IMG/VR virus record: IMGVR_UViG_3300012155_000036
Span: 1 to 11,024 of that record
Strand: one strand, 5' to 3'
DNA: 11,024 nucleotides
Origin: a virus
Taxonomy: Duplodnaviria; Heunggongvirae; Uroviricota; Caudoviricetes
Shown here: positions 1-11,024 of the stretch, one piece after another
Layout of the letters: each line of letters begins with the position of its first letter
How positions within the stretch are numbered: position 1 is the stretch's first letter
The notes under the pieces: generated by a model
Told to the model about the DNA's origin: nothing
Database searches by the model: none
What the model saw: only the letters and a program-made list of their open reading frames with translations
Position numbers and translations under genes: made by a program

Positions 1-185
1 GTCTGCGGCTGAATCTCCTGATAGTAAACAATGCCGCCGAACTGCCCGTGCACGTTCACCTCAAAGTAACGGCAATCAGGTTTGTAGTCGTATCCATCAC
101 CGTTGTTGCTTCCGGCAATAATGTCAGGGTGATTTCCTACTGCTTCGATCAGGTCGATGTTTCGCGTTGGTTTGAATGTAATCAT
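1..185 (-). CDS. N-terminal fragment (61 codons) of the gene following the tail needle, running off the left edge; by position the P22 gene-14 slot (internal virion / ejection-associated protein)
   Basis: ATG at 185..183 overlaps the needle stop codon (TGATG on the minus strand); frame is open to base 3. My translation: [61 protein letters not shown]. Not in the ORF track because it is truncated. Function is inferred from synteny only. Confidence 0.5.
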   Translation of the reverse strand, partial: MITFKPTRNIDLIEAVGNHPDIIAGSNNGDGYDYKPDCRYFEVNVHGQFGGIVYYQEIQPQ

Positions 186-886
186 CAGTCAATCAGCCCA
201 TGTAATCTAAGTGCCGTTTCAAGTGCCAGAATACGCTGCCGCGCCTGCTGCAAACCTGTAGCGAGGGATGCAACTTCGGATTGTGTGTACGTAGTGCCGA
301 CAGTGTATGACTGGTTAGCGTTGAATGAGCCAAGAAGTGGCGTACCTGTGGCTGCAGTCCATCCGGTATTTCTTGCTCCAACAACCTGAATTCCATCAAC
401 TGAATATGATGTTTTTACATCCAGCGGTGACGCAAGAGACTGCGATTCGGTTACGGTTTTCGATACGTAATCACTCTTAATGTCAGATACATCGCTTTCT
501 ACGCCATCCAGTCTTTTGTCAACAGTGACCAGATGCGCCTGAATATCGATAACCTCATCCAGCAAGTAATCAACATCGCTACGCAGTACGACTATCTTCC
601 CTTCGGCAGTTGTTAACCTGACCTCAAGGAGATTTATCGCTTTTGTGTTTGCGGTGATTCTTGTGTCGTGATCAGCCAGTTCGACATCCTGTTCATCGTT
701 TTTCACCTGAGCATCGTAAGCGCCCTGACCAGCCTGATTTGCCTTCCCGGCAATTGCGCCGACATCAGCCCCCTGATTAATGACATACAACAGGTAAGAC
801 TGGCTGAAGATATTGCGTGGAAGGATTGATGTATCGAGCCGCGTCGCCTGCACAATAACAGGGGTGTTGAGATTCGAATCAGCCAT
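185..886 (-). CDS. Tail needle protein, P22 gp26-like (233 aa)
   Basis: 233 aa, the length I recall for P22 gp26. N-terminus [18 protein letters not shown]...SYLLYVI and C-terminus ...[18 protein letters not shown]...[22 protein letters not shown] resemble what I remember of that family. ATG at 886..884 shares one base with the upstream stop (TAATG). It lies immediately after the gp10-like gene, as in P22. Confidence 0.88.
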
Positions 887-2304
887 TACTCAATCCTTAT
901 CTGGCAACCAGACAGGGTGACAGGTGACTTCGTGATAACGCGCAATTTGAAACCAATGTTTTTCCTGATGCGCCCTACTTTCTTCCACAAAACGCGTTTG
1001 TCGTAAACGAACGGTTCATTCTGCTCAATCATCTGCTCACGCCCGTAATTGATGCCGTCAGTGGTTGCAGAGAGAAAAAGGCGGTCAGCGTACTGCGCAA
1101 CGCCAGTTGAAGATTCAACTTCAAGGTCGAACACTCTGGCATTATCTGCTTTGAACAACGGAGTAAACAGCAGGTGTTCCTGTTGCTTGTCGTACTGGCT
1201 GCTGATATCGAACTGCAATTTCCCGGTCACGGATTCCAGCTTATCGCCGCACGTTATCTGATTGCCTTCGTAAATGAAGTCGATAGCGCGGTACACATCG
1301 TCATACAGGCCTGTTTTCAGTACACACCATTGCGGACCATTGGCGCTTGAAGATGCGTCGTACACGAGAACATGGCGCGGAAGGTGGATAATCAGCAACT
1401 CATGCGCATCAAATCGCAGAGACTCCATCACACCATCAGCCAGTTCATCAGCAGTGTAGGAGCGGAGAATTTTCTCAATGCTCGCGCTGGCGATTGGTGA
1501 CACCTGACCGGATCCGATGATGTAAACAGACGGAGCACCTGTTGCCGGATTGCTGATGAACGCATAAGAATCAGCGAATGGCGTTTTGCAGTAAGTCCCG
1601 GCGATGCCTTTTTGCACCATCAGTGATGGCTGTGCGACATACAAAGCTGCACCAACGGTGGTTGCACCAGTCAGGGAGAAATATTCAATCGTCGATGAAC
1701 CAAAGCAGACGATGAAGTCTCGCCATGTGCCGATGCCGATGATGCCGTCCGGCTGCGATTCTGCGCGATATTGTGCGCTGTAGCGGTCAGGATGCGATTC
1801 GTCTTCAAGATCAGTGATGAACCATGAATCAGTGCCGTCTTTTGACCACGCATAACGCCCACGCAAGCGCGTAATGTCGCGAACTGAACCTAACTCATAC
1901 TGCGTGAATCCGCTGTCTGTAGGCCAGTTTGAGACTGTTTTAACCGTGCCATCATAACGATACTCGACCAGTTGACCATTAACGCCTACAGCCTGAGATG
2001 TCCGACCATGTGCCATTGATACGCGACCACTTCCGGCGACGTCACCGACTTCGCTTTCGCCTTTGTAGAGCTTGCCGCCACACACACGATAAACAGCATT
2101 CTGAGCCATGTTGTACTCGACGCCTCGCGATACTCCGTTCACATCAGAACGTTTGGCAATGCCCGGGAATGAGCGAAGATATCCGCTGCTGTTGAGTATT
2201 TCTTTGGGTGTAGCCAGCATATTCACTGGCAGATAGTCGATATAGTCGGCGTTTCGAAAGTCTTTGCCGACACCTTTCATGAGCGGAAGTTGCTGAATCG
2301 GCAT
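886..2304 (-). CDS. Head-completion / tail-hub protein, P22 gp10-like (472 aa)
   Basis: 472 aa, the same length I recall for P22 gp10, in the expected position between the gp4-like and needle genes. ATG at 2304..2302 is preceded by GAGGTG with a 6 nt spacer. Confidence 0.85.
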
Positions 2305-2313
2305 TTATTCACC

Positions 2314-2775
2314 TCACGTACTCGGATCATCTTTCTCGATGTAAAACCGATTCCACGTAAACGCGCTTTTGTTACCACTACCGCGAGGCATGTCATTTCG
2401 CCGCTCAAGTGGTGGTATTTTGGTTAAAGCGATGCAGATTGTCTGATATGCACTGTCAGCAGCGGTCAGGAGAGCATCCGACGGCTGAATGACGTTATCC
2501 ATGCACACTTGCACAGCGAGTTTCAAAGCGACGCCATCATTTGCCCATGCAGGGATACCTGAATCATCGTCCGGTAACGGCATGATGCCGTTTTCTGTAT
2601 CAGCAAACTGATACCCAAGCTCGATACCTTTAGCCTGCCATGCTGCCATCATGTCTTCGAGGTCATTAATGGCATCTTCAATTGCCTGAGGGTCAGCATC
2701 TGTCAACGTGGCATTGGAATACAGCCCAGCTTTTCGTAAAGCCTTTAGAACGAGATCACCCTTCGTTTTCGCCAT
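2314..2775 (-). CDS. Head-completion / tail adaptor protein, P22 gp4-like (153 aa)
   Basis: N-terminus MAKTKGDLVLKALRKAGLYSNATLTD resembles my recollection of P22 gp4 (MQIKTKGDLVRAALRKLG...). Position is between the capsid and gp10-like genes. It ends 9 nt before the gp10-like start. Confidence 0.8.
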   Translation of the reverse strand: MAKTKGDLVLKALRKAGLYSNATLTDADPQAIEDAINDLEDMMAAWQAKGIELGYQFADTENGIMPLPDDDSGIPAWANDGVALKLAVQVCMDNVIQPSDALLTAADSAYQTICIALTKIPPLERRNDMPRGSGNKSAFTWNRFYIEKDDPST

Positions 2776-2944
2776 CTTCTTCCGCCTTAGCCAATTTTTG
2801 CTTCGTTGCGGTTTCTTCAGGAGTTTTTACCCAACCTTTTTTCAGGTGAGATTTAACCTCTTCGTCATCAACAATGATGTAATCGACAGCAAACTGACCA
2901 CAGATGATCATGTTGCCAGGCTTATAGAGCATTGTTCGTGCCAT
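2756..2944 (-). CDS. Small hypothetical protein (62 aa) between capsid and gp4-like genes, with an acidic C-terminal tail (AKAEEDGENEG)
   Basis: ATG at 2944..2942 is preceded by GGGAGA with a 5 nt spacer, directly after the terminator hairpin. It overlaps the gp4-like start by 20 nt in another frame. The ORF track extends it to a TTG at 2983, which would overlap the hairpin and capsid stop; I prefer the ATG start. Confidence 0.45.
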   Translation of the reverse strand: MARTMLYKPGNMIICGQFAVDYIIVDDEEVKSHLKKGWVKTPEETATKQKLAKAEEDGENEG

Positions 2945-2950
2945 TGTATT

Positions 2951-2985
2951 CTCCCAATAAAAATGGGGCCGAAGCCCCACCAAAA
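2951..2985 (-). terminator. Putative intrinsic terminator / attenuator immediately 3' of the major capsid gene
   Basis: Minus-strand RNA reads UAA-UUUUGG-UGGGGC-UUCG-GCCCCA-UUUUUAUU. A perfect 6 bp GC-rich stem (2964..2969 pairing with 2974..2979) closes a UUCG tetraloop and is followed by a U5AUU tract. Downstream genes must still be expressed, so any termination would be partial. Confidence 0.5.
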
Positions 2986-4239
2986 TTACTGCCCGGCAAT
3001 AACGATGCCCGTATATTCAGGAACAAGTACAGAGCAACCGTAAAGAGTGGTGAAACGAGCAGTGGTTACGCCTTTGATGTGGTCGAAGGAGTAAGACATG
3101 ATCAGCGTAGCGCCCTGCTCGGTGGTTGCTGTCATTACCTGTGGACCCTGACCAGTCGGGAACGCCAGTTTGCCGTACATCAGCTCAACAGAACCATCAG
3201 CCCAGAACAGGTTAGCCGGTGCGGCATTTTTGTTGAGAATGGTGATTGCTGCACCATTTGCCGCGTTAGCATCAACGTTTGCATATGGACGGCTGGCGAC
3301 ATCTGCGTTGTCAGGCGGCAGAATTTTCGGGGAGATAGTCACTGTCGTTCCGCTTACTGCCAGAACGCGGAATACCTGCGGCTGCCCGGTGGTATCTTTG
3401 GTAATCTGGTGTACAGAATTCACGCCTGCAATGGTGAACGCATCGCCAACCTGCAAACCTTCAGCAGATACCGTAATGGTCCCCTGTCGGTTATCCACTG
3501 GCATATCGTTAGCATCTTTCGCTTCAACCTTGTGCGCAGGTGCTGCTGCCAGCGTAATGGAAGTTGCTGTACCCTTCGGAACACGACCGGAAATATCGGT
3601 CTTGTAGCTATCGAAGGACGCAACCGGAGGGATCTGCGCTTTTTCGTATGCTGTCAGGGTTGCGCCCTGAGCATAGGCACGGTGACCAAGCTCGCCAGCA
3701 AGGTCTTTGTAGTTGAAGGGGTTCCAGAAAGAGCGGCGGTTGATACCCTGTGGTACACCAATCGCCGTCATGGTGGCATCAATACCTGCCGCACAGTTCC
3801 ACAAATCACGGCCCTGTGAACCAGTGGTTGAGTCAGCCATTGTGATCACGTTAGTAGCACGCTGCGTGACCATGGAAATCAGGTCAGAGTCAATCTGTGC
3901 AGCAAGGCGCATACCTGCGGCGCGACCAGCTTCAGTTTTATGTTCCGGGTCACGCATTTCACGCGCATCCAGAGTGTACAGAATGTTTTTCGGCTCCTTG
4001 AACACAGAAGGAACAAGGCGCTGAACCAGTGCTGTTGGCGTTTTGCCGCTGAGGTCTAGGCCTTCCTCAATGTTCATGTGGTAATGCTGCGGACGATACA
4101 GAACATCACCTGCTCGCTGCATTGCTGTATCACCGGGACGGAATTTTTTAGCGTTACGGGAAACTACGCAGGCGGCCTCAAAGCCTTCAACGTAGTTTTC
4201 GAACATGATTTCAAGGTCTTTTGCTAATTGGTTAGCCAT
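2986..4239 (-). CDS. Major capsid (coat) protein, P22/Sf6 gp5 family (417 aa)
   Basis: About 420 aa ORF directly after the scaffold gene, the arrangement in P22-like phages. ATG at 4239..4237 is preceded by GGAG with an 8 nt spacer. Followed by the terminator-like hairpin. Confidence 0.9.
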   Translation of the reverse strand: MANQLAKDLEIMFENYVEGFEAACVVSRNAKKFRPGDTAMQRAGDVLYRPQHYHMNIEEGLDLSGKTPTALVQRLVPSVFKEPKNILYTLDAREMRDPEHKTEAGRAAGMRLAAQIDSDLISMVTQRATNVITMADSTTGSQGRDLWNCAAGIDATMTAIGVPQGINRRSFWNPFNYKDLAGELGHRAYAQGATLTAYEKAQIPPVASFDSYKTDISGRVPKGTATSITLAAAPAHKVEAKDANDMPVDNRQGTITVSAEGLQVGDAFTIAGVNSVHQITKDTTGQPQVFRVLAVSGTTVTISPKILPPDNADVASRPYANVDANAANGAAITILNKNAAPANLFWADGSVELMYGKLAFPTGQGPQVMTATTEQGATLIMSYSFDHIKGVTTARFTTLYGCSVLVPEYTGIVIAGQ

Positions 4240-4257
4240 GCTTAATGCTCCGATAGG

Positions 4258-5151
4258 TTATTTTTTTGCCTTTTTAGCGGCGAAATACGGCGTCCAGTCA
4301 CCAGTTTCCAGCGCCTTGGCTTTCAGTTTGTCGAGGTTGTTGATTACTGCGCCGTTGCTCCCCTTAACTGTCGGGGTTGTGGCTGCCGTGGTTTTTGCTT
4401 TTGGCATGATTCTGGCCTTCGATTCGATACGTTCCAGCAGACGACCAATTGCTACGGGGTTGGTAGCTTCTGCCAGTTGCTTGCGCAGTTCAGCGTTGCG
4501 ACCGAGTGCCAGAACAACGATTTCCGGCTTCTCTGACTCAAACAAGATCGCGTTTTGTGTCTCGATGGGGATTTCCTCGAGTACGGCCTGCTCAGCTTCC
4601 TGATAGCCAGGAACTTTGAGAGCCTTAACACGTTGCTGATATTTGGATAATCGCTCTTGATAGGCAGCCTGAAGCTCCTGCTCCTTCTGCTTGCGAGCCA
4701 TCTCCTGTTGCTGGTACTTGCCGTTATCCTCTGCCCACTTAGCCATGCGTTGCTGGTAGATTTCTTCATCGAAACCGATGTCCTCATCATCCAGTTTTGG
4801 CATTCGCGGTGGTTGAGTGATTACCGGCTGCTGCTCGACGGGTTTCTGAGACTGACGCATCAGCTCTTTCAGCTCACGGTCTTTCTCTTTAATCGTCTTG
4901 CGCAGGTGTTTTACCAGTCCATGCTCTGCGCCATCTTCGCTGGTTGGCGAATCCAGCTTTTCGTCACCAAAGTAGAATTCCTGTTCTGATTCGTCGTCAT
5001 CAGTTTCAGTAGCTTCCTCTACATCATTGCCGGATGACTCACTGCCATCTTCTGTTTCGACTTCTTCAGCCAGTTCGACATCATCAGGAATCTGCTCTGA
5101 CGCGTCGGTTTCGATTTCAACTTCTGGTGTGTTTTCTGCCATCTGGTCCAT
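4258..5151 (-). CDS. Scaffolding protein (297 aa)
   Basis: Sits between portal and capsid genes; about 300 aa, as for P22 gp8. The N-terminal ~80 residues are extremely acidic, the middle is charged and helical-looking (QQQEMARKQKEQELQAAYQERLSKYQQRVKALK), and the C-terminus is basic (KLKAKALETGDWTPYFAAKKAKK), consistent with a coat-binding end. Confidence 0.82.
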   Translation of the reverse strand: MDQMAENTPEVEIETDASEQIPDDVELAEEVETEDGSESSGNDVEEATETDDDESEQEFYFGDEKLDSPTSEDGAEHGLVKHLRKTIKEKDRELKELMRQSQKPVEQQPVITQPPRMPKLDDEDIGFDEEIYQQRMAKWAEDNGKYQQQEMARKQKEQELQAAYQERLSKYQQRVKALKVPGYQEAEQAVLEEIPIETQNAILFESEKPEIVVLALGRNAELRKQLAEATNPVAIGRLLERIESKARIMPKAKTTAATTPTVKGSNGAVINNLDKLKAKALETGDWTPYFAAKKAKK

Positions 5152-5241
5152 TTGTTACCCCTGTTTACTCGATGTTCAGCCCATCGGAAGGCAATAGGGT
5201 GCCAGGCCTCATAAAGACAGCCATTGCACGTTATGGGTTAA

Positions 5242-7440
5242 TTACTGCTGTGGTTGTTGCTGAGTTGATTTTTGCAGGATGCTGCTGATGTCCATGCGCT
5301 GCGCATGGCCCTGTGCCTGACTTTTCAGGACAAGCTCTGCATCAGCACGGGCATTGTCTCCTTGCTGTTGCTGGAACTGTCCGAGCAGTTTCAGAGCCTC
5401 GCGGATATCAGATTTCTGCTGGCTATCAGCAGATGCGAGGATTTTCACAACATTTGCCGCTGCAACCTGAGCATCAGTCTGTGCCTGGAATGCTTTAACC
5501 TGAATGGCTGCCTGCTCGTTCTGCGCTTTCTGCAATTCAGCCTGACCAGCAAGAAGCTGACCTTGCGCAGCAACCATAGCCGGATCTGGCTGACTGGCCT
5601 GTTGTTGTTTCGCCTGCTCAACCATTTGCTGTTCTTCAGGCGTTCTCGGCTTGATAACGCCAGACAGAAGCAACTGATTGCGGTTGTATTCTTTCAGGTC
5701 GTCCATCCCTTCGCCGTCCATATTGTCGAGAATCATCGACGATACAAGGTCATGCTTCGGCGTTCCTGGCGGGATAAGTGCCAGCATGGAAAGTAACGAC
5801 TTAACCGTTGCATCACGGCGAGTAGCGAACGACTGACCGACATCGACAGTCACTTCATAGTTGCCCTGCGAAAGGTCATTAAGCGCGATAACCTGCCCTG
5901 TCTGACGGTCAATCACTTCACCAGTCATCAGCGCCACGTCATCGCTGCCGTCCTCATTAACGATACGCATCGGCGTATCACTGCCATAGACCTCACGCGC
6001 CATAGAAAGCCACACAACGCCAGCGCGGCGCATGGATTTAGCCATGTTGTCCATGTAGATATAGGACTGCGTGTCCATCCGGTTAAAAATGCTATCAACG
6101 GTATCGGTGGCGACGTTGCTCGGCATGTTCTCAAGCTGCGACGCACCTGTAATTTGCTGAATAGCCGTTCCGGTGTACTGCAATAGCCCGGCAAGAGCAG
6201 GAGGCATTTGTGTCGGAGGTGTCCAGCCAGCAACCTGAGCCTCTGAAATGACCGTTCCGTTTTTGTCCTTCTTGCTGGTCATGGGAAGAACTGCAGGTCT
6301 TTTCTTATTCCTCTCTGCCCAGTGATTCATTAATGGACCGGGAATGAAATCAACATCCACGATAGGAATGCCATCACCGCCAGCCTGAGTAGCGTTATCT
6401 GCAATCATGGAAACCATCAGGTTCTCAAGACGCTGTGCATCCATCGCTTTTGCTGCGTGGCCTTCGATTCGCTCCTGATTATCAACAAATGAACGACGCC
6501 CATATACCGGGATGAGAGGAATATGTTCACCCGGAATACGCTTCGGTTCTTCCAGCCATTCAGCGCCAGACAGAAGACCGCAATAAACGCGGCGTTTCTT
6601 CACTGTCCGCTCACCAATCAGTTCGAATGCGCCATCGGTTAGCTCGTCGACAATATCTTTGATTTGCTCTTCATCATAGATTGCTGTTTCTCCGCTGACA
6701 GGATTGCGCCACGCCGTGAGCTTCACCTTCTCTATGCGAACTTCGTAGTAGCGTCCAACATAGATGGCATCGGGCGTTGACCAGTCATACTGAGTACCAG
6801 TGTCATCACGAGAAAGGCTTGCCGCAATGGAATCAGGGTATTCAGCCTCGAACGCTTTAGGCGTCATGGAGAACATTTCCATAGCCCACATAGCATCAGA
6901 GCGGTCATATTGCTTGCTGTCCTGATCGAAGAAGACGCATGTCGCTGGGTCGTAAACAGGAAGAAGGCTGATGCGTCGCTGCTCGTTACTCGGATCCATT
7001 TCATCCTCGTAATCAGCACACATGCGGAAACAACCGAATCCGCCCGTTACAGCATCATCAAATGCGTTATCACACGCTTCGCCACCGGATGTTTCCTGAT
7101 AGTCAGCGCGGAATTTGCCGTTCATCTTTTCGGCTAACGCTTCCGATGCCTTATCGTCCTTCGGTCTGAATTTAACGCTGATGCGATTCTGTCGATACTC
7201 GCCAATGATGCGATCACATTCACGGGAAATCTTATTCAGTTCAAAGCGCGGGTAATGCTCAAACCTGCCTTCATCAAATGAGTAACCAGCGTTTGTGCTG
7301 CCTTCCCACTGTGCGCCGGATACCCGGACGAAACGTTGAGCCTCAATAATCTGCTCACGCATATCCTGCGTTGCTGACCAGGCATTATCAAAGTTGCACA
7401 GCACCTTGCGATGCCAGTCAGTCATCTTTTTTTCTGCCAT
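5242..7440 (-). CDS. Portal protein, P22 gp1 / Sf6 gp3 family (732 aa)
   Basis: 732 aa ORF immediately downstream of the large terminase (TGA-T-ATG junction). The long Gln/Ala-rich helical C-terminus (...PEEQQMVEQAKQQQ...AQNEQAAIQVKAFQAQ...QQQPQQ) resembles the C-terminal barrel region I recall in the P22 portal. Confidence 0.92.
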   Translation of the reverse strand: MAEKKMTDWHRKVLCNFDNAWSATQDMREQIIEAQRFVRVSGAQWEGSTNAGYSFDEGRFEHYPRFELNKISRECDRIIGEYRQNRISVKFRPKDDKASEALAEKMNGKFRADYQETSGGEACDNAFDDAVTGGFGCFRMCADYEDEMDPSNEQRRISLLPVYDPATCVFFDQDSKQYDRSDAMWAMEMFSMTPKAFEAEYPDSIAASLSRDDTGTQYDWSTPDAIYVGRYYEVRIEKVKLTAWRNPVSGETAIYDEEQIKDIVDELTDGAFELIGERTVKKRRVYCGLLSGAEWLEEPKRIPGEHIPLIPVYGRRSFVDNQERIEGHAAKAMDAQRLENLMVSMIADNATQAGGDGIPIVDVDFIPGPLMNHWAERNKKRPAVLPMTSKKDKNGTVISEAQVAGWTPPTQMPPALAGLLQYTGTAIQQITGASQLENMPSNVATDTVDSIFNRMDTQSYIYMDNMAKSMRRAGVVWLSMAREVYGSDTPMRIVNEDGSDDVALMTGEVIDRQTGQVIALNDLSQGNYEVTVDVGQSFATRRDATVKSLLSMLALIPPGTPKHDLVSSMILDNMDGEGMDDLKEYNRNQLLLSGVIKPRTPEEQQMVEQAKQQQASQPDPAMVAAQGQLLAGQAELQKAQNEQAAIQVKAFQAQTDAQVAAANVVKILASADSQQKSDIREALKLLGQFQQQQGDNARADAELVLKSQAQGHAQRMDISSILQKSTQQQPQQ

Positions 7441-7441
7441 A

Positions 7442-8857
7442 TCAACCTACACCACAAGGAATTGAGTAACTGGAATAGTCGGGTTGCGCAGCCGACTCCG
7501 GGCAATGCATACACATCATCAGCGCATCAGCCAGGTTAGGAGATGGAATACCGAGCTTCTGCTTCATTTCGACCTTAGTCATAAGCTCCAGCTTCCCGTT
7601 ATTATTGAATTTGCGCTGAATCTGCGTCAGTTCTGCAAACAGCTTCTCCAGCATCTTCTCGCCTATCGCTTCTTTGTCGAAACTCAGCATGTCGTCTGGG
7701 TCTGCATACTCACCGTGAACAACCGCACGATATGTCAGATACAGCCTGTCAGCCAGCGCGTAATAGAATTGCGCTCGCTTATTGCGGAATACATCGCCAA
7801 TAGTGCGAACGTTGTCGCCCTGCACGACTTCATCAGCCCATGCTCCGGCCTGGTAAGGCGCATCTTCATCGAATGGCGATTCGCTACCCTTGAACATCGT
7901 GGCGGTGATTTTCTTGCCGGAGAACGCTTCCGTTGTCTGTCTGCGTAGCCCGGCACCAACACCATCACCATCCCACAGGTAATGGTCAGCGCCGTCTTCA
8001 ATCGCCAGCGAAGTAGCCCAGTCAGCACCCTCGTTGATGTCCATCAGCAGACCTTCGGCAATGCGCTTAACTACCGAACCGTGACGCGATGCATAACCTT
8101 TAGCATCCGGCCCTGTATCTGACGGGTCATGTGCAGAAACAACAGCGCCTTTCGCTTTCCATCCGAGTTTCTTGTGCGCATCGGTTGCGGCTTCAAGCCA
8201 TTCACGTTTGATGATTGCCATATCACTTGCGCTTACCGGCTCACCAAGCCAGATGTGACGATACAGTGTCGGATTTCTGCGTTTGCACTCTTCCATCTCC
8301 AGACGGAGAACTTCAGGAAAGTGCGGGTTGTCGGTGTAGTTCACCGTCAACAGACAAATATCATCAGGAGGATTTACGACGAATCGCTGATAGGTATCGT
8401 CGAGGATGTTCTTCGGGTTAAAGCTCACCCATATTTCAGAGAACGGCTTACGGATGGTTGGAATCAGGATATCCCATGATTCCTTCGTTACCGCTTCCGC
8501 TTCTTCCACCCAGCAGATATCAATACCTTCGAGCGATTTAATCTTCGTCGGGTTGTTTTTAATGCCGTAGAACATGAATTCAGCATTCGTTCCGAGATGA
8601 CGAATCATTGAACGCTGAATTTCAAACTCAGCCGAATACCCTTCACGCTCGATGGTATCTTCAAGCAACCGGATTACCGAATCGCTGATACTGTTTTGCA
8701 GTTCACGAGCGCAGAGAATACGCACTGGCTGCCGACGCGCCGCTTCAACAAGCAGTCTCGCAATTGCCCATGACTTACCGCTACCTCGACCGCCTTTGGC
8801 GACTTTGTAGCGATGCGCCTCAATGAACGGTTCAAAGATAGGATTAATCGAGGTCAT
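7442..8857 (-). CDS. Terminase large subunit (471 aa)
   Basis: Walker A motif KGGRGSGKS near the N-terminus and a Walker B-like IDICWVEEAE. The N-terminus MTSINPIFEPFIEAHRYKVAKGGRGSGKSWAIARLL matches what I recall of Sf6 gp2. ATGA overlap with the small terminase stop. Confidence 0.93.
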   Translation of the reverse strand: MTSINPIFEPFIEAHRYKVAKGGRGSGKSWAIARLLVEAARRQPVRILCARELQNSISDSVIRLLEDTIEREGYSAEFEIQRSMIRHLGTNAEFMFYGIKNNPTKIKSLEGIDICWVEEAEAVTKESWDILIPTIRKPFSEIWVSFNPKNILDDTYQRFVVNPPDDICLLTVNYTDNPHFPEVLRLEMEECKRRNPTLYRHIWLGEPVSASDMAIIKREWLEAATDAHKKLGWKAKGAVVSAHDPSDTGPDAKGYASRHGSVVKRIAEGLLMDINEGADWATSLAIEDGADHYLWDGDGVGAGLRRQTTEAFSGKKITATMFKGSESPFDEDAPYQAGAWADEVVQGDNVRTIGDVFRNKRAQFYYALADRLYLTYRAVVHGEYADPDDMLSFDKEAIGEKMLEKLFAELTQIQRKFNNNGKLELMTKVEMKQKLGIPSPNLADALMMCMHCPESAAQPDYSSYSIPCGVG

Positions 8858-9279
8858 TTTCCGAATAGAGTACTCATCGGTGATGTTTCAATCTGTATTG
8901 CGCCGCCGTCTTTGCCGACAAGCTCGTTAGTTACCTTGTCGCCATACTTACGGGGATTCATTCGTGCCAGCGCCCATTTGCGGGTATCAACGCGAAGTCT
9001 TGCCTTTGCCACCTCAGCAGCATCTGGAATCGCAGTGTCAGCAATTTCGAATATCTCTTCGAAAATAGAATCAGCTCGTGCCTCAGTTGCCTTCGCGTAC
9101 TTGTCTCTAAATTCTTCATGCTCTGACAGCCAGCGAAATACAGTAGCCTTTGCTGGCATGCCTGGGCGCTTGCAAACCTTAACCAGACTTTCCCCGGAGG
9201 CAAGCAGCGCACAGATATCATCAGCCACCTCCGGCAGGTAATCCGAAGGGCGACCGACATTCTTTTTCTCAGTCGCCAT
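8854..9279 (-). CDS. Terminase small subunit (141 aa), Sf6 gp1-like
   Basis: 141 aa ORF directly upstream of the large terminase and coupled to it. Translation MATEKKNVGRPSDYLPEVADDICALL...KVCKRPGMPAKATVFRWL suggests an N-terminal helix-turn-helix DNA-binding domain and resembles my recollection of Sf6 gp1. Confidence 0.82.
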   Translation of the reverse strand: MATEKKNVGRPSDYLPEVADDICALLASGESLVKVCKRPGMPAKATVFRWLSEHEEFRDKYAKATEARADSIFEEIFEIADTAIPDAAEVAKARLRVDTRKWALARMNPRKYGDKVTNELVGKDGGAIQIETSPMSTLFGK

Positions 9280-9358
9280 ATTGATTATTTCCCTTCTGCT
9301 TGCTTATCCCATTCATCGCGGAATTTGGATGGGTTGTCGAAACCTTGAATTGCCATGT

Positions 9359-9613
9359 TTATGCTCCGGTAGTGAACAGGTCTAACGCTTCCTTCGATTT
9401 ACGCACCGCTTCGATAGTACGGGTCGTGATATCTGAATTAGCGCCACCTGACTGGAAGTGAATTTTGAATAGCTCAAGCTTCAGTTCGTCAGTGCCAATG
9501 AATTGAAATGCTTCTTCTGCGGCTGCGTTCTGGTTCATGACCAGTTTGTAAATCTCTAACTGGAATTTCTGTTCTTCAGTCATGGGAATAATCTCTGCCA
9601 TTGTTGGCTCCAT
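9359..9613 (-). CDS. Hypothetical small protein (84 aa; 80 aa if it starts at the second ATG, 9601)
   Basis: ORF upstream of the small terminase. The internal ATG at 9601..9599 has the better ribosome-binding site (GGAG, 6 nt spacer); the first ATG at 9613 has only a weak GGA. No family recognised. Confidence 0.5.
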   Translation of the reverse strand: MEPTMAEIIPMTEEQKFQLEIYKLVMNQNAAAEEAFQFIGTDELKLELFKIHFQSGGANSDITTRTIEAVRKSKEALDLFTTGA

Positions 9614-9704
9614 TTATCCGTTAAAGGGGATATCAGTTAAGTTATCCCGTGTAGGGTATAAGCCATTATCAAAGCCACTCTGTAGGGAATGGCTTTTGTA
9701 ATAA

Positions 9705-10085
9705 CTACTGTTCGCTTAGCTTCTGCTTCAGCAAGTAACCTTCGAGCATCCAGATTTTGTTTACAGCATTTTGCCGGGCAATCTTCCGACCAATTTCTGC
9801 ATCAAAGTTTTCCGGGCTTGCACAGGCACTCTCTCCGGTGACGGTGAAGCCATTCTTCAGCACCAGTACGCAGAAAGTGAGCAACTTCAATGGTGATAAA
9901 TCACGATCGCCTTCTTCTGGTTTTTCCCTGCCACAATATTCGTTGCTGGAAATGGCACCATTTCGTCCATCATAAGCAGTAAAGTAATGCTCGCTTTTAA
10001 TCACGTCTTCGATGTGCTGCGGGGTGATTCGCGGTGCCGTTTTGCCTTTCTCAACGATTTCTTTTTCGATTTGCTGGTCGTTCAT
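9705..10085 (-). CDS. Conserved phage protein (126 aa), possibly Gp49-like / DUF2829 family
   Basis: The motif ...LTFCVLVLKNGFTVTGESACASPENFDAEIGRKIARQNAVNKIWMLEGYLL resembles a family I recall as Gp49-like (DUF2829), which often sits near terminase genes. Family name is from memory and unverified. ATG at 10085. Confidence 0.55.
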   Translation of the reverse strand: MNDQQIEKEIVEKGKTAPRITPQHIEDVIKSEHYFTAYDGRNGAISSNEYCGREKPEEGDRDLSPLKLLTFCVLVLKNGFTVTGESACASPENFDAEIGRKIARQNAVNKIWMLEGYLLKQKLSEQ

Positions 10086-10272
10086 AATTATGACCCTGTG
10101 GAGTGGTTGCTTGATTAGGATGTCTTTCCATCAGTCCGCCACCACAAAGAATCTTTTTTGCCATAAGGCTGGAGGTTCATCTTTCAGTGGCTGCCAGTGT
10201 TATTTCCCCACTTACTGGCTTGGGTTGTTTCGTGGTACTGCCGTAATGTACAGACTGGATTAACCTGAGAAA

Positions 10273-10803
10273 TCACACCATTCCGGGCAAATACATTTGC
10301 ACTTCATTTGCCGCTCTCTCACGTGCAACATGAAGCAATCTTTTTCGCCCACCAACGCCCCACTTAGCCATTTGGCTTGCGCACTGGCTTATCGCTTTGG
10401 TTTCAGTATTGATGATGTGATCGATTCTATTCAGACGTGACATTGCGCCAACGCCGAGACGGACAACCGTTTTGAAAACTTCATAAACTTCGATTTCAAA
10501 TTCCGGCTTAATCCATGCTGCATATCTGATTGCCAGAAGTTCAACACCCCACACACCTGGTTCTGCACCACCTTTGATTATTTTAAGTGGTTGAATTTGT
10601 TCCAAAGTGCTTTTTTGCACTTTGGCCTCCAGTGCTTTTATGAAGCGTTTTATCTGCGCGCTACGCAAAAACTGGCTTGGGCGCTGTTGCTCTGTAGCCT
10701 CTCCATTTGCAACTGCTGCTGCATGGAGATCGTTTAAGTTGTAGCGTCCATCCTCATCAACACGAACGGACACACCATTGACAATAACTGTTGGGTACTT
10801 CAT
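10273..10803 (-). CDS. KilA-N domain-like DNA-binding protein (176 aa)
   Basis: N-terminal region ...VNGVSVRVDEDGRYNLNDLHAAAVANGEATEQQRPSQFLRSAQIKRFIKALE fits the KilA-N pattern as I remember it (DG-Y-N-DLH-A-G ... P-FLR). ATG at 10803. About 220 nt of apparently non-coding sequence lies upstream. Confidence 0.6.
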   Translation of the reverse strand: MKYPTVIVNGVSVRVDEDGRYNLNDLHAAAVANGEATEQQRPSQFLRSAQIKRFIKALEAKVQKSTLEQIQPLKIIKGGAEPGVWGVELLAIRYAAWIKPEFEIEVYEVFKTVVRLGVGAMSRLNRIDHIINTETKAISQCASQMAKWGVGGRKRLLHVARERAANEVQMYLPGMV

Positions 10804-11024
10804 CAGTGATTACCTTTTAGTGATGAACCTTGTCACACAGGATTCCGGCCCACAGAAAGGCACCGATCACCAAACCGGCATCCTCAAGGGTCATCCTGAA
10901 AGGTTCTGTGTTCAGAAGTCGCGCGTGTGAAGCGCGTTTGTTGCAGATATAAAGAAGCCCCGCGAATGCGAGGCTAAACCCTGGTATTTGTAATGACTGG
11001 CTCTTATCTCAACGCAGCCCCTTA

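Follow-up and report, generated by a model that had tools for sequence, protein, structure and literature searches.

The accessory region described here occupies positions 9280-11024 of a stretch of viral DNA of 11,024 nucleotides (nt; IMG/VR record IMGVR_UViG_3300012155_000036, Caudoviricetes), hereafter the window, and carries three small genes, for a protein with a KilA-N domain, a member of the Acb4 family of anti-defence proteins and a protein of the DUF2560 family, just upstream of the terminase genes. All long open reading frames (ORFs) of the window lie on the minus strand. The structural and packaging genes span 185-9279 and end with those for the portal (5242-7440), the large terminase (7442-8857) and the small terminase subunit, terS (8854-9279, minus strand), which encodes a 141-amino-acid (aa) protein of the Sf6 type (PF20901, Sf6_terminase, E 9.6e-45; phrog_1482, E 1e-66) and is the downstream end of the accessory region. 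To its right follow, on the same strand, ORFs at 9359-9613 (84 aa), 9705-10085 (126 aa) and 10273-10803 (176 aa), with gaps first described as 79, 91 and 187 nt, and then 221 nt up to the window end, in which there is no ORF longer than 25 aa.

The contrast between a tightly packed structural block and widely spaced accessory genes, drawn in an earlier description of this DNA (the original prediction), was confirmed: gaps in the structural block range from -20 to 90 nt, the 75-aa ORF at 2756-2983 included, and differ from those of the accessory genes (exact Mann-Whitney p=0.004). This 75-aa ORF (minus strand, TTG start) occupies what would otherwise be a 210-nt gap between a 153-aa gene and the coat gene, and matches a small annotated gene of phage phiv205-1. 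The accessory ORF coordinates, the 79- and 187-nt spacers and the ORF-poor right end of the original prediction stand as well, with two corrections. The window ends on the stop codon of a further gene, described below. The true start of the 84-aa gene is almost certainly the second ATG, at 9601, giving an 80-aa protein (9359-9601): this ATG has a GGAG ribosome-binding site, the upstream ATG reads ACG in most homologous loci, and 80 aa are called both by the Prokaryotic Genome Annotation Pipeline (PGAP) and in the P22, Sf6 and HK620 records. Because the gene starts at 9601, the middle spacer measures 103 nt (91 from the upstream ATG).

An Acb4-family protein in the accessory region

The 126-aa protein (9705-10085, minus strand) belongs to the Acb4 (anti-CBASS 4) family of cyclic-dinucleotide sponges, CBASS being the cyclic-oligonucleotide-based antiphage signalling system, and is of the Sf6 gp66 type. 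It matches the whole of PF13876 (Phage_gp49_66; model positions 1-82 of 82) with an E-value of 3.4e-35 and 120.8 bits (cut-off 27), and is identical to Sf6 gp66 (Q716B1) at 125 of 126 residues, the sole change being D3 versus G3. Acb4 was discovered in Bacillus phage SPO1 as a 96-aa protein whose tetramer sequesters 3'3'-cyclic GMP-AMP (3'3'-cGAMP) and related CBASS signals; by the definition of Chang et al. the family comprises 1,331 members of PF13876, all eight purified diverse homologues bound 3'3'-cGAMP, and Table S3 of that study includes Sf6 gp66 (bioRxiv 10.1101/2024.12.30.630793). The original prediction had placed any anti-defence function in this region, which the Acb4 assignment bears out, while reporting no direct sequence evidence and recognising similarity for two of the three proteins only. 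Both of the latter statements have to be revised: the anti-defence gene is evident from PF13876 and the near-identity to Sf6 gp66, and all three proteins belong to Pfam families with scores above the cut-offs (PF04383, PF13876 and PF10834).

Structural comparison points to the same family. In the PDB, the sole match to the sequence of the 126-aa protein was the Acb4 structure 9E4W (E 0.007), which a profile built from 71 relatives retrieved with an E-value of 7e-5. The AlphaFold2 (AF2) monomer model built on the alignment of these relatives (pLDDT 91.7, from the predicted local distance difference test) has strands at residues 29-36, 69-76 and 81-87 and a helix at 96-125, and the predicted protomer fold, with three antiparallel strands, N-terminal helices and a long C-terminal helix, fits the 9E4W type. 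When the model was compared with the PDB by Foldseek, the top 13 matches were all chains of 9E4W (probability 1.0, target template-modelling score 0.60-0.70, 23-25% identity), and the hit after these had an E-value of 0.25. The core residues of the protein are invariant in the 71 relatives.

A closer characterised relative is the Acb4 of the Escherichia coli phage N4, which is 45% identical over residues 19-126 (E 4e-29). The N4 protein binds cyclic di-AMP (c-di-AMP) with a dissociation constant of 111 nM, and its expression alone triggers the PanDA guard system (bioRxiv 10.64898/2026.08.10.743972). We compared the residues that contact the ligand in SPO1 Acb4 (K36, F48, E49, V56, Y57, F62, N63, I66, T70 and K81). 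Those of the stacking and adenine-pocket interactions, F48, F62 and I66, are kept as F80, F94 and I98. At the sites of T81, F80, F94 and I98, the proven sponge N4 Acb4 has T, F, F and L. The two proteins also have the core motif NGFT-TG-SAC in common, a pattern that, by analogy with N4, would fit acceptance of c-di-AMP by the subtype found here; according to published work, Acb4s of Gram-negative phages also accept 3'3'-c-di-AMP.

Two close relatives, P0100 and P0107 (71-73% identity), join Acb4 to a second domain, Tad2 (PF11195) or Sequestin (PF21825), and Acb4 fusions to Tad2 and Sequestin have already been described (bioRxiv 10.1101/2025.07.12.664507). In the N4 record (L012, NC_008720, 33632-34485) the PF13876 protein is EPNV4_gp48 and the adjacent gp49 is Tad2-like, so that Acb4 and a Tad2-like protein stand side by side; the Pfam name 'N4 Gp49' mismatches the RefSeq numbering, since the N4 protein of PF13876 is tagged gp48.

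Variable cargo and conserved spacers in P22-like phages

For a survey of the locus, 80 P22-like viral contigs were fetched via DUF2560 and their genes labelled by tblastn. Of these contigs, 72 reach all the way from Rz to the terminase, 70 of them with distinct interval sequences. Across these 72 loci, the position after Rz (slot A) is taken by Rha (29), by nothing (23), by a KilA-N protein of the HkbK type (11) or of the window type (5), or by a Tad2-like protein (PF11195; 4). The position before DUF2560 (slot B) is empty in 50 loci and holds Acb4 in 16 and hkbL in 8, both genes being present in two, and the interval from DUF2560 to terS (slot C) is empty in 53, with orf59c/hkbN in 14 and orf47/orf48 in 6. 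Acb4 pairs with four of the five states of slot A (Rha, HkbK-type KilA-N, Tad2-like and empty). The window-type KilA-N gene was found without Acb4 in all five of its loci, and the pairing of the two was seen in Escherichia coli prophages.

The DNA of 9280-11024 is a mosaic, pieces of which occur in 339 phage records, none sharing 80% of it. For example, Sf6 carries the Acb4 and DUF2560 segment at 98% identity and no KilA-N gene; UPF_BP1, SE1 and ST104 carry KilA-N and DUF2560 and no Acb4. The exact trio was found in a handful of complete E. coli genomes, inside a prophage, and fragments of the region in about half of such genomes (2800 of 5426). A moron, in the Juhala/Hendrix sense, is present or absent among close relatives and has a precise insertion point, and this describes Acb4 (16 of 72) and window-type KilA-N (5 of 72); DUF2560 is constant and does not behave in this way. 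In P22 the site holds rha, orf25, pid (on the opposite strand), orf80 and orf59c, and the orf25-orf80 interval is a genuine moron site, the P22 pid locus, at which relatives have no insert or another one (Cenens et al. 2013, PMC3573128).

Related phages carry different genes in the region. Huey (L001, 997-1497) has a 166-aa Tad2-like protein (PF11195) where the window has KilA-N; the 'anti-CRISPR' labels in Huey are automatic and actually sit on the Acb4 homologue and the Tad2-like protein. A protein with the Acb2/Tad1 hairpin (PF24729, E 3.5e-18) is encoded in the same region of L106 (3423-3707), and in a Tatumella prophage (L052, 3211-3444) an Acb2-like ORF lies just upstream of a KilA-N homologue. 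Across phages, the region thus contains three families of immune-signal sponges: Acb4, Tad2-like and Acb2-like. Further slot cargo includes a 62-aa ORF assigned to no family (L095, 3674-3862), DUF551 (L125, 3635-3853), a 95-aa ORF (L167, 3419-3706), an hkbL-like gene fused to T5orf172/MUG113 (L131, 1563-2048) and DUF6953 on the opposite strand (L125, 4319-4558, minus). By association, these uncharacterised genes are candidates for new anti-defence genes. None of the three proteins of the window matched a PADLOC defence model, and no NCBIfam match passed its cut-off.

The wide spacers are conserved non-coding junction and RNA elements, neither coding nor slack. In the 187-nt spacer, 134 nt between the cargo slots (10119-10252, minus strand) form a non-coding core that is homologous to P22G and 94-99% identical in 69 of the 80 loci regardless of its neighbours. 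Its variable sites are spread evenly over the codon phases (12/9/10) and it contains 1-nt indels, so it is not a gene; it has been called as an ORF in three different frames, namely orf25 in P22, a 45-aa ORF in phiv205-1 and a 37-aa ORF in Huey. Over 128 nt, positions 10119-10244 match the published P22G sequence at 95.3% identity; P22G is a small RNA of 204 nt seen in cells infected with P22 (PMC13397905). Both P22G and a second such RNA, P22F, may be pieces of the late transcript that happen to be stable, and not RNAs in their own right.

The edges of the Acb4 insertion could be placed exactly. A 33-nt leader with a ribosome-binding site (10086-10118, minus strand), present only in 18 Acb4-bearing loci and missing from empty sites, forms a cassette with the ORF (10118 down to 9705), inserted between the end of the core, GACATC, and TTATT; empty slot B sites read GACATC-GG-TTATTGC. 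Directly 3' of the Acb4 stop codon, at the right-hand junction of the cargo slot, stands a long hairpin of 16 pairs with a 2x2 internal loop (9663-9704, minus strand). Over 18 distinct sequences, 98% of the cells are paired, and 4 pairs show compensatory double changes, with three allelic types. The score of the hairpin was reached by none of 500 shuffles, and slid controls were 42-57% paired; the covariation comes from three lineages and hence from few independent events. Type 1, that of the window, is present in every one of the 19 loci that bear Acb4 and also where the cargo is different, and type 2 in 37 empty sites, so that hairpin type correlates with a filled or an empty slot. Since type 2 has no U-run, the hairpin is not a canonical terminator; it might be cut by RNase III, stabilise the end of an mRNA or mark a boundary of recombination. 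A related hairpin lies just after gp65/Rz in Sf6 and in loci with an empty slot A, and the window retains only the first bases of this Sf6 post-gp65 hairpin (CATTACAAA, 10995-10987), after which the KilA-N cassette begins.

In the DUF2560 leader, just upstream of the ribosome-binding site, a small hairpin of 6 pairs, GGGAUA-N10-UAUCCC (9627-9648, minus strand), is 99% paired and almost invariant, so that covariation is uninformative about it either way. The 79-nt leader or junction before terS (9280-9358, minus strand) is 96-100% identical in 23 of the 80 loci. Its last ~30 nt (9280-9312) include the terS ribosome-binding site and recur unchanged in L106, as the 3' end of a 162-aa gene that stands before another type of terS; this shared junction is probably a recombination scar. 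A 23-codon mini-ORF (9285-9356, minus strand) fills the same spacer and is probably not a gene. Upstream of the slot A gene, a structured leader of ~110 nt (10804-10915, minus strand) aligns with the P22 small RNA P22F, which ends 6 nt from rha (PMC13397905). This leader is conserved before both KilA-N and Rha genes, has frame-breaking 1-nt indels in diverged homologues, and yields an RNAalifold consensus structure with weak covariation. It contains a hydrophobic ORF of 25 codons (10817-10894; MTLEDAGLVIGAFLWAGILCDKVHH), annotated as part of a 54-aa protein in UPF_BP1 and as the Rha N-terminus in P22, which, because of the indels in diverged homologues, is probably not a gene here.

At the start of the KilA-N cassette, a consensus scan identified a terminator-like hairpin of 8 pairs, 6 of them G-C, with a T-rich tail (10946-10975, minus strand). 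Candidates for the terminators expected around morons are this hairpin upstream of KilA-N and the conserved one after Acb4, which has no clear U-run, consensus scans being weak evidence either way. A search of Rfam at a permissive E-value gave only a chance-level match (asX2, E 0.53). The small spacer ORFs were rejected as genes (9285-9356, 23 aa; 10817-10894, 25 aa; 10051-10164, 37 aa; the hyp45/orf25 frame; and 10012-10263 on the plus strand, 83 aa) on account of 1-nt indels, the lack of codon-phase bias and frames that differ among annotation pipelines.

These comparisons partly support what had been proposed for the locus. The original prediction of an accessory (moron) region between the lysis and packaging genes was right, the site being that of the P22 pid locus. 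Its trio has to be taken apart into independent modules, and what it described as loose packing is a series of conserved junction and RNA elements; the coding spacers that would have spoken against it did not appear, given the indels and even codon phases. As to conservation across P22-like loci, the KilA-N and 126-aa genes vary independently, as an accessory locus would imply, whereas DUF2560 is near-universal and not cargo.

The KilA-N and DUF2560 proteins and their neighbours

The cargo of slot A in the window is a 176-aa protein (10273-10803, minus strand) with a KilA-N domain at residues 9-113 (PF04383, E 7e-18, 64.8 bits with a cut-off of 23.8, model positions 6-104 of 107; phrog_129, E 2e-60), the domain that the original prediction had named. 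It is 91-95% identical to proteins of the Salmonella phages MG40 (KilA), SE1, ST104 (orf45) and ST64B (sb54), with 95% for the first three, and its full 176 residues are conserved in prophages of many Enterobacterales; homologues in other genera stand in unrelated contexts that are too heterogeneous to be informative. The conserved C-terminal ~60 aa had no recognisable relative in a profile search of the PDB, and a match of the C-terminal half to MarR/TcaR in such a search (E 0.0014) was marginal and treated as noise. No PADLOC model matched the protein at E<=1. BstA, whose N-terminus is KilA-N-like, was considered as an identity and ruled out on the PADLOC result, the difference in length (176 versus 307 aa) and the position in the late operon. 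From its domain and position, the protein is likely to be a sequence-specific DNA-binding, antirepressor-like regulator that is interchangeable with Rha.

The gene next to terS encodes the 80-aa DUF2560 protein (9359-9601, minus strand; PF10834, E 1e-43, 147.5 bits with a cut-off of 25), which is P22 Orf80, Sf6 gp67 and HK620 HkbM. It is 100% identical in Sf6, HK620, CUS-3 and epsilon34 and 98.8% in P22 (79-80 of 80 residues), and a second allele with ~43% identity is found in ST104, L and SPN9CC. The AF2 model has four helices at moderate confidence (pLDDT 73), and no meaningful fold or profile match was found in the PDB. The family is small and restricted to Enterobacterales: a set of 5.8 billion proteins contained 93 clusters of it, and a set of 1.84 billion contained 73 representatives. 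Phage records contain 143 full-length matches, compared with ~150 enterobacterial P22-like records detected by portal, an estimate of frequency given that the two lists were not intersected. By sequence comparison, DUF2560 belongs to the backbone of enterobacterial P22-like phages, in which it is nearly universal and hardly varies, and is not cargo.

Casjens and colleagues report that a P22 derivative with a resistance cassette in place of orf25, pid and orf80 can still lysogenise and grow lytically (bioRxiv 10.1101/2023.08.15.553423). Because the gene is dispensable in P22 and is paired with three unrelated types of terS, we favour, as a guess made with little confidence, a non-essential role in host interaction or late regulation over a structural one. 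A Sequestin (PF21825) identity was rejected: there is no Pfam match, hhalign of the DUF2560 profile against the Sequestin domain of P0107 gave a probability of 0.5%, and there is no fold match in the PDB. The siphoviruses HK97, HK544, HK75, HK446 and mEp234/235/X1 have kept no more of DUF2560 than its first 27-28 codons (93-96% identical), which lie towards the right end of the genome; this HK97-like remnant matches phrog_23132 and suggests a boundary that these phages have in common with P22-like ones.

The right end of the window coincides exactly with the stop codon (11022-11024) of a further gene, for a 50-aa protein like Sf6 gp65. Comparison with Sf6, L171 and L159 delimits this stop and a conserved boundary ending in CATTACAAA (10995-10987) as one feature (10987-11024, minus strand). 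The hydrophobic gp65-like protein (MPSMIAIILLIILHIWLC...) just off the window, seen in L004 (7208-7360), overlaps the end of Rz, as it does in Sf6 and E. coli prophages, and its gene is found in many, not all, P22-like loci. The gene order in the E. coli prophages is Q, holin, endolysin, Rz, gp65-like gene, KilA-N, Acb4, DUF2560 and terS. The closest relative by portal is phiv205-1 (L009, MN340231; 99.7%), in which the 146-aa small terminase is misannotated as 'HNH homing endonuclease' and the coat protein as 'terminase small subunit'.

Interpretation and comparison with known phages

Taking together family membership, fold, synteny, cassette boundaries and the conservation and covariation of the RNA elements, we consider it probable that the region is a conserved scaffold with two independently filled cargo slots, including an Acb4-family sponge, between the lysis genes and the terminase of a P22-like (Lederbergvirus) prophage or phage. 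On the late strand the order is gp65-like gene, boundary, slot A, P22G-like core, slot B, long hairpin, DUF2560 leader, DUF2560/Orf80 and terS, and synteny with P22, Sf6 and lambda suggests that all of this is read within a Q-dependent late transcript. The KilA-N protein of slot A would be a DNA-binding, antirepressor-like regulator. The 126-aa Acb4 of slot B, by analogy with SPO1 and N4, would form a homotetramer with four inter-subunit pockets that sequester the cyclic dinucleotides made by cGAS/DncV-like nucleotidyltransferases (CD-NTases) of the host, the likely ligands being 3'3'-cGAMP, cyclic UMP-AMP (cUA) and 3'3'-c-di-AMP, the last as in other Acb4s of Gram-negative phages. CBASS effectors would then stay untriggered and the phage would complete packaging; the same sponge activity would expose it to c-di-AMP decoy guards such as PanDA. 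DUF2560/Orf80, small and predicted to be helical, is kept almost invariant next to terS.

Several points weigh against parts of this account. The SPO1 contacts to guanine and phosphate, K36, E49, Y57 and T70, correspond to L68, T81, A89 and I102 in the 126-aa protein, and because these residues differ, ligand specificity is not transferable from SPO1. We found no biochemical or genetic test of the Sf6 gp66 subtype, although it may have been among the eight assayed homologues; the structure model covers the monomer only. The roles given to the KilA-N and DUF2560 proteins follow solely from domain identity and position. The survey, being seeded with DUF2560, cannot measure the frequency of this gene. 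A sigma-70 consensus scan of the spacers gave no promoter-like site, although such scans are weak either way; on that basis expression would be late only, which may be late for counter-defence and departs from the classical moron with a promoter of its own.

If DUF2560/Orf80 served the terminase as an accessory in packaging or late regulation, and were not an accessory gene for host interaction, its invariance and its fixed place just upstream of terS would be explained: it is always the last or nearly the last gene before terS of any type, often 2-5 nt from the next gene, it is near-invariant across phages of Salmonella, Shigella and E. coli, and its first 28 codons are still found at the corresponding site in HK97-like phages. 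We nevertheless regard this as unlikely, because the P22 replacement of orf25, pid and orf80 still lysogenises and grows lytically and the family is confined to Enterobacterales; with three unrelated types of terS, a specific terS protein partner is also unlikely. A slightly smaller chance attaches to the idea that the P22G-like core, the covarying long hairpin and DUF2560 together are a platform for acquiring and expressing anti-defence cassettes, which is based on the alternation of Acb4, Tad2-like and Acb2-like sponges at the site. In that case DUF2560, the KilA-N/Rha slot proteins or both could be anti-defence factors not yet recognised as such, or could regulate the cargo, and the hairpin could be a cassette junction serving RNA processing or stabilisation, or a recombination site recognised by its structure.

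For the 126-aa protein, it is quite improbable that the Acb4 fold serves something other than an anti-CBASS sponge, such as RNA binding or another signal (c-di-AMP decoys, Thoeris or type III CRISPR). The fold does resemble double-stranded-RNA-binding domains and ribosome-hibernation proteins, with Rv1738 (hibernation-factor-like) and HPF as the next, weak Foldseek matches, and the protein departs from SPO1 Acb4 in its guanine and phosphate contacts and in an insertion or extension of ~30 residues. However, every one of the eight diverse homologues assayed bound 3'3'-cGAMP, N4 Acb4, which is 45% identical and has the same NGFT-TG-SAC motif, binds c-di-AMP and is a sponge in vivo, and both the invariant core in the 71 relatives and the Tad2 and Sequestin fusions of this subtype argue for a sponge. 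Still less probable is a KilA-N protein acting in prophage abortive infection after the manner of BstA, by which the region would carry defence together with anti-defence. The terminator-like hairpin before its gene is as in morons expressed from prophages, but the protein matches no PADLOC model at E<=1, has 176 rather than 307 aa without the C-terminal domain of BstA, and is encoded in the late operon, not beside the repressor, with no promoter-like site upstream and in a slot that it has in common with Rha-type antirepressor-like proteins. Anti-defence genes often travel with DNA-binding regulators, and the three genes are adjacent and co-oriented, recur as the same trio in several E. coli prophages, and have a parallel in the neighbouring Tad2-like and Acb4 genes of Huey and N4, all of which would suit a single co-inherited system, either an anti-defence operon of the acr-aca kind with its regulator or a prophage defence system. 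We find this very unlikely, given that Acb4 assorts with Rha, HkbK-type KilA-N, a Tad2-like gene or an empty slot A, that all five survey loci with window-type KilA-N are without Acb4, and that DUF2560 is present whatever the cargo; moreover, cassette boundaries separate the genes, homologues of the KilA-N protein occur elsewhere in unrelated contexts, and PADLOC gave no match.

Much of the scaffold-and-slots arrangement is already known in its parts: the proteins are 91-100% identical to those of published phages, the moron locus has been described before, and one of the spacers corresponds to a small RNA already in the literature. The present analysis adds the composition of the trio from separate modules set on a conserved scaffold, the precise edges of the cassettes, the support that covariation gives to the hairpin, and the alternation of Acb4, Tad2-like and Acb2-like genes at this location among P22-like phages; in a limited literature search we found no paper naming the region an anti-defence hot spot. 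The gp66-like proteins of P22-like prophages now called 'hypothetical' or 'Gp49 family' are to be annotated as Acb4 anti-CBASS sponges. The temperate P22-like phages of Salmonella, Shigella and E. coli seem to maintain, between their lysis and packaging genes, a compact hot spot in which sponges of CBASS and Thoeris signals (Acb4, Acb2-like and Tad2-like) alternate with uncharacterised small genes (hkbL, the 62-aa ORF, DUF551 and DUF6953). Because P22 and Sf6 are genetically tractable, the site is convenient for finding anti-defence genes by association and for probing Orf80 and the RNA elements. The results are useful for annotation and as leads; they apply current understanding rather than change it, and are in that sense unsurprising.

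The closest published counterparts of the region are those of Sf6 and P22. Sf6 gp66 occupies the same position as the Acb4 gene of the window, just upstream of gp67 (DUF2560), and the flanking non-coding DNA is 98% identical; unlike the window, Sf6 lacks an upstream KilA-N gene, and gp68 separates its DUF2560 gene from terS. The P22 pid locus has the same insertion point as the Acb4 of the window, between the orf25/P22G core and the orf80 leader; pid runs on the opposite strand, Acb4 on the late one, and the window contains no pid homologue. P22G and P22F flank rha in P22, and their homologues flank KilA-N in the window. P22 Orf80, HK620 HkbM and Sf6 gp67 hold the same place before terS as the DUF2560 gene, and the KilA-N proteins of ST104, SE1, MG40 and ST64B the same slot after Rz as that of the window. 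HkbK of HK620 and KilA of P1 have the KilA-N domain in common with the window protein at 26-34% identity, HkbK with an ORF11CD3 C-terminal domain that the window protein lacks, and BstA of BTP1, with 307 aa, has a different C-terminal half. Finally, compared with SPO1 Acb4 (96 aa, ~25% identity), the 126-aa protein is 30 aa longer and has other guanine-reading residues, whereas the fold matches.

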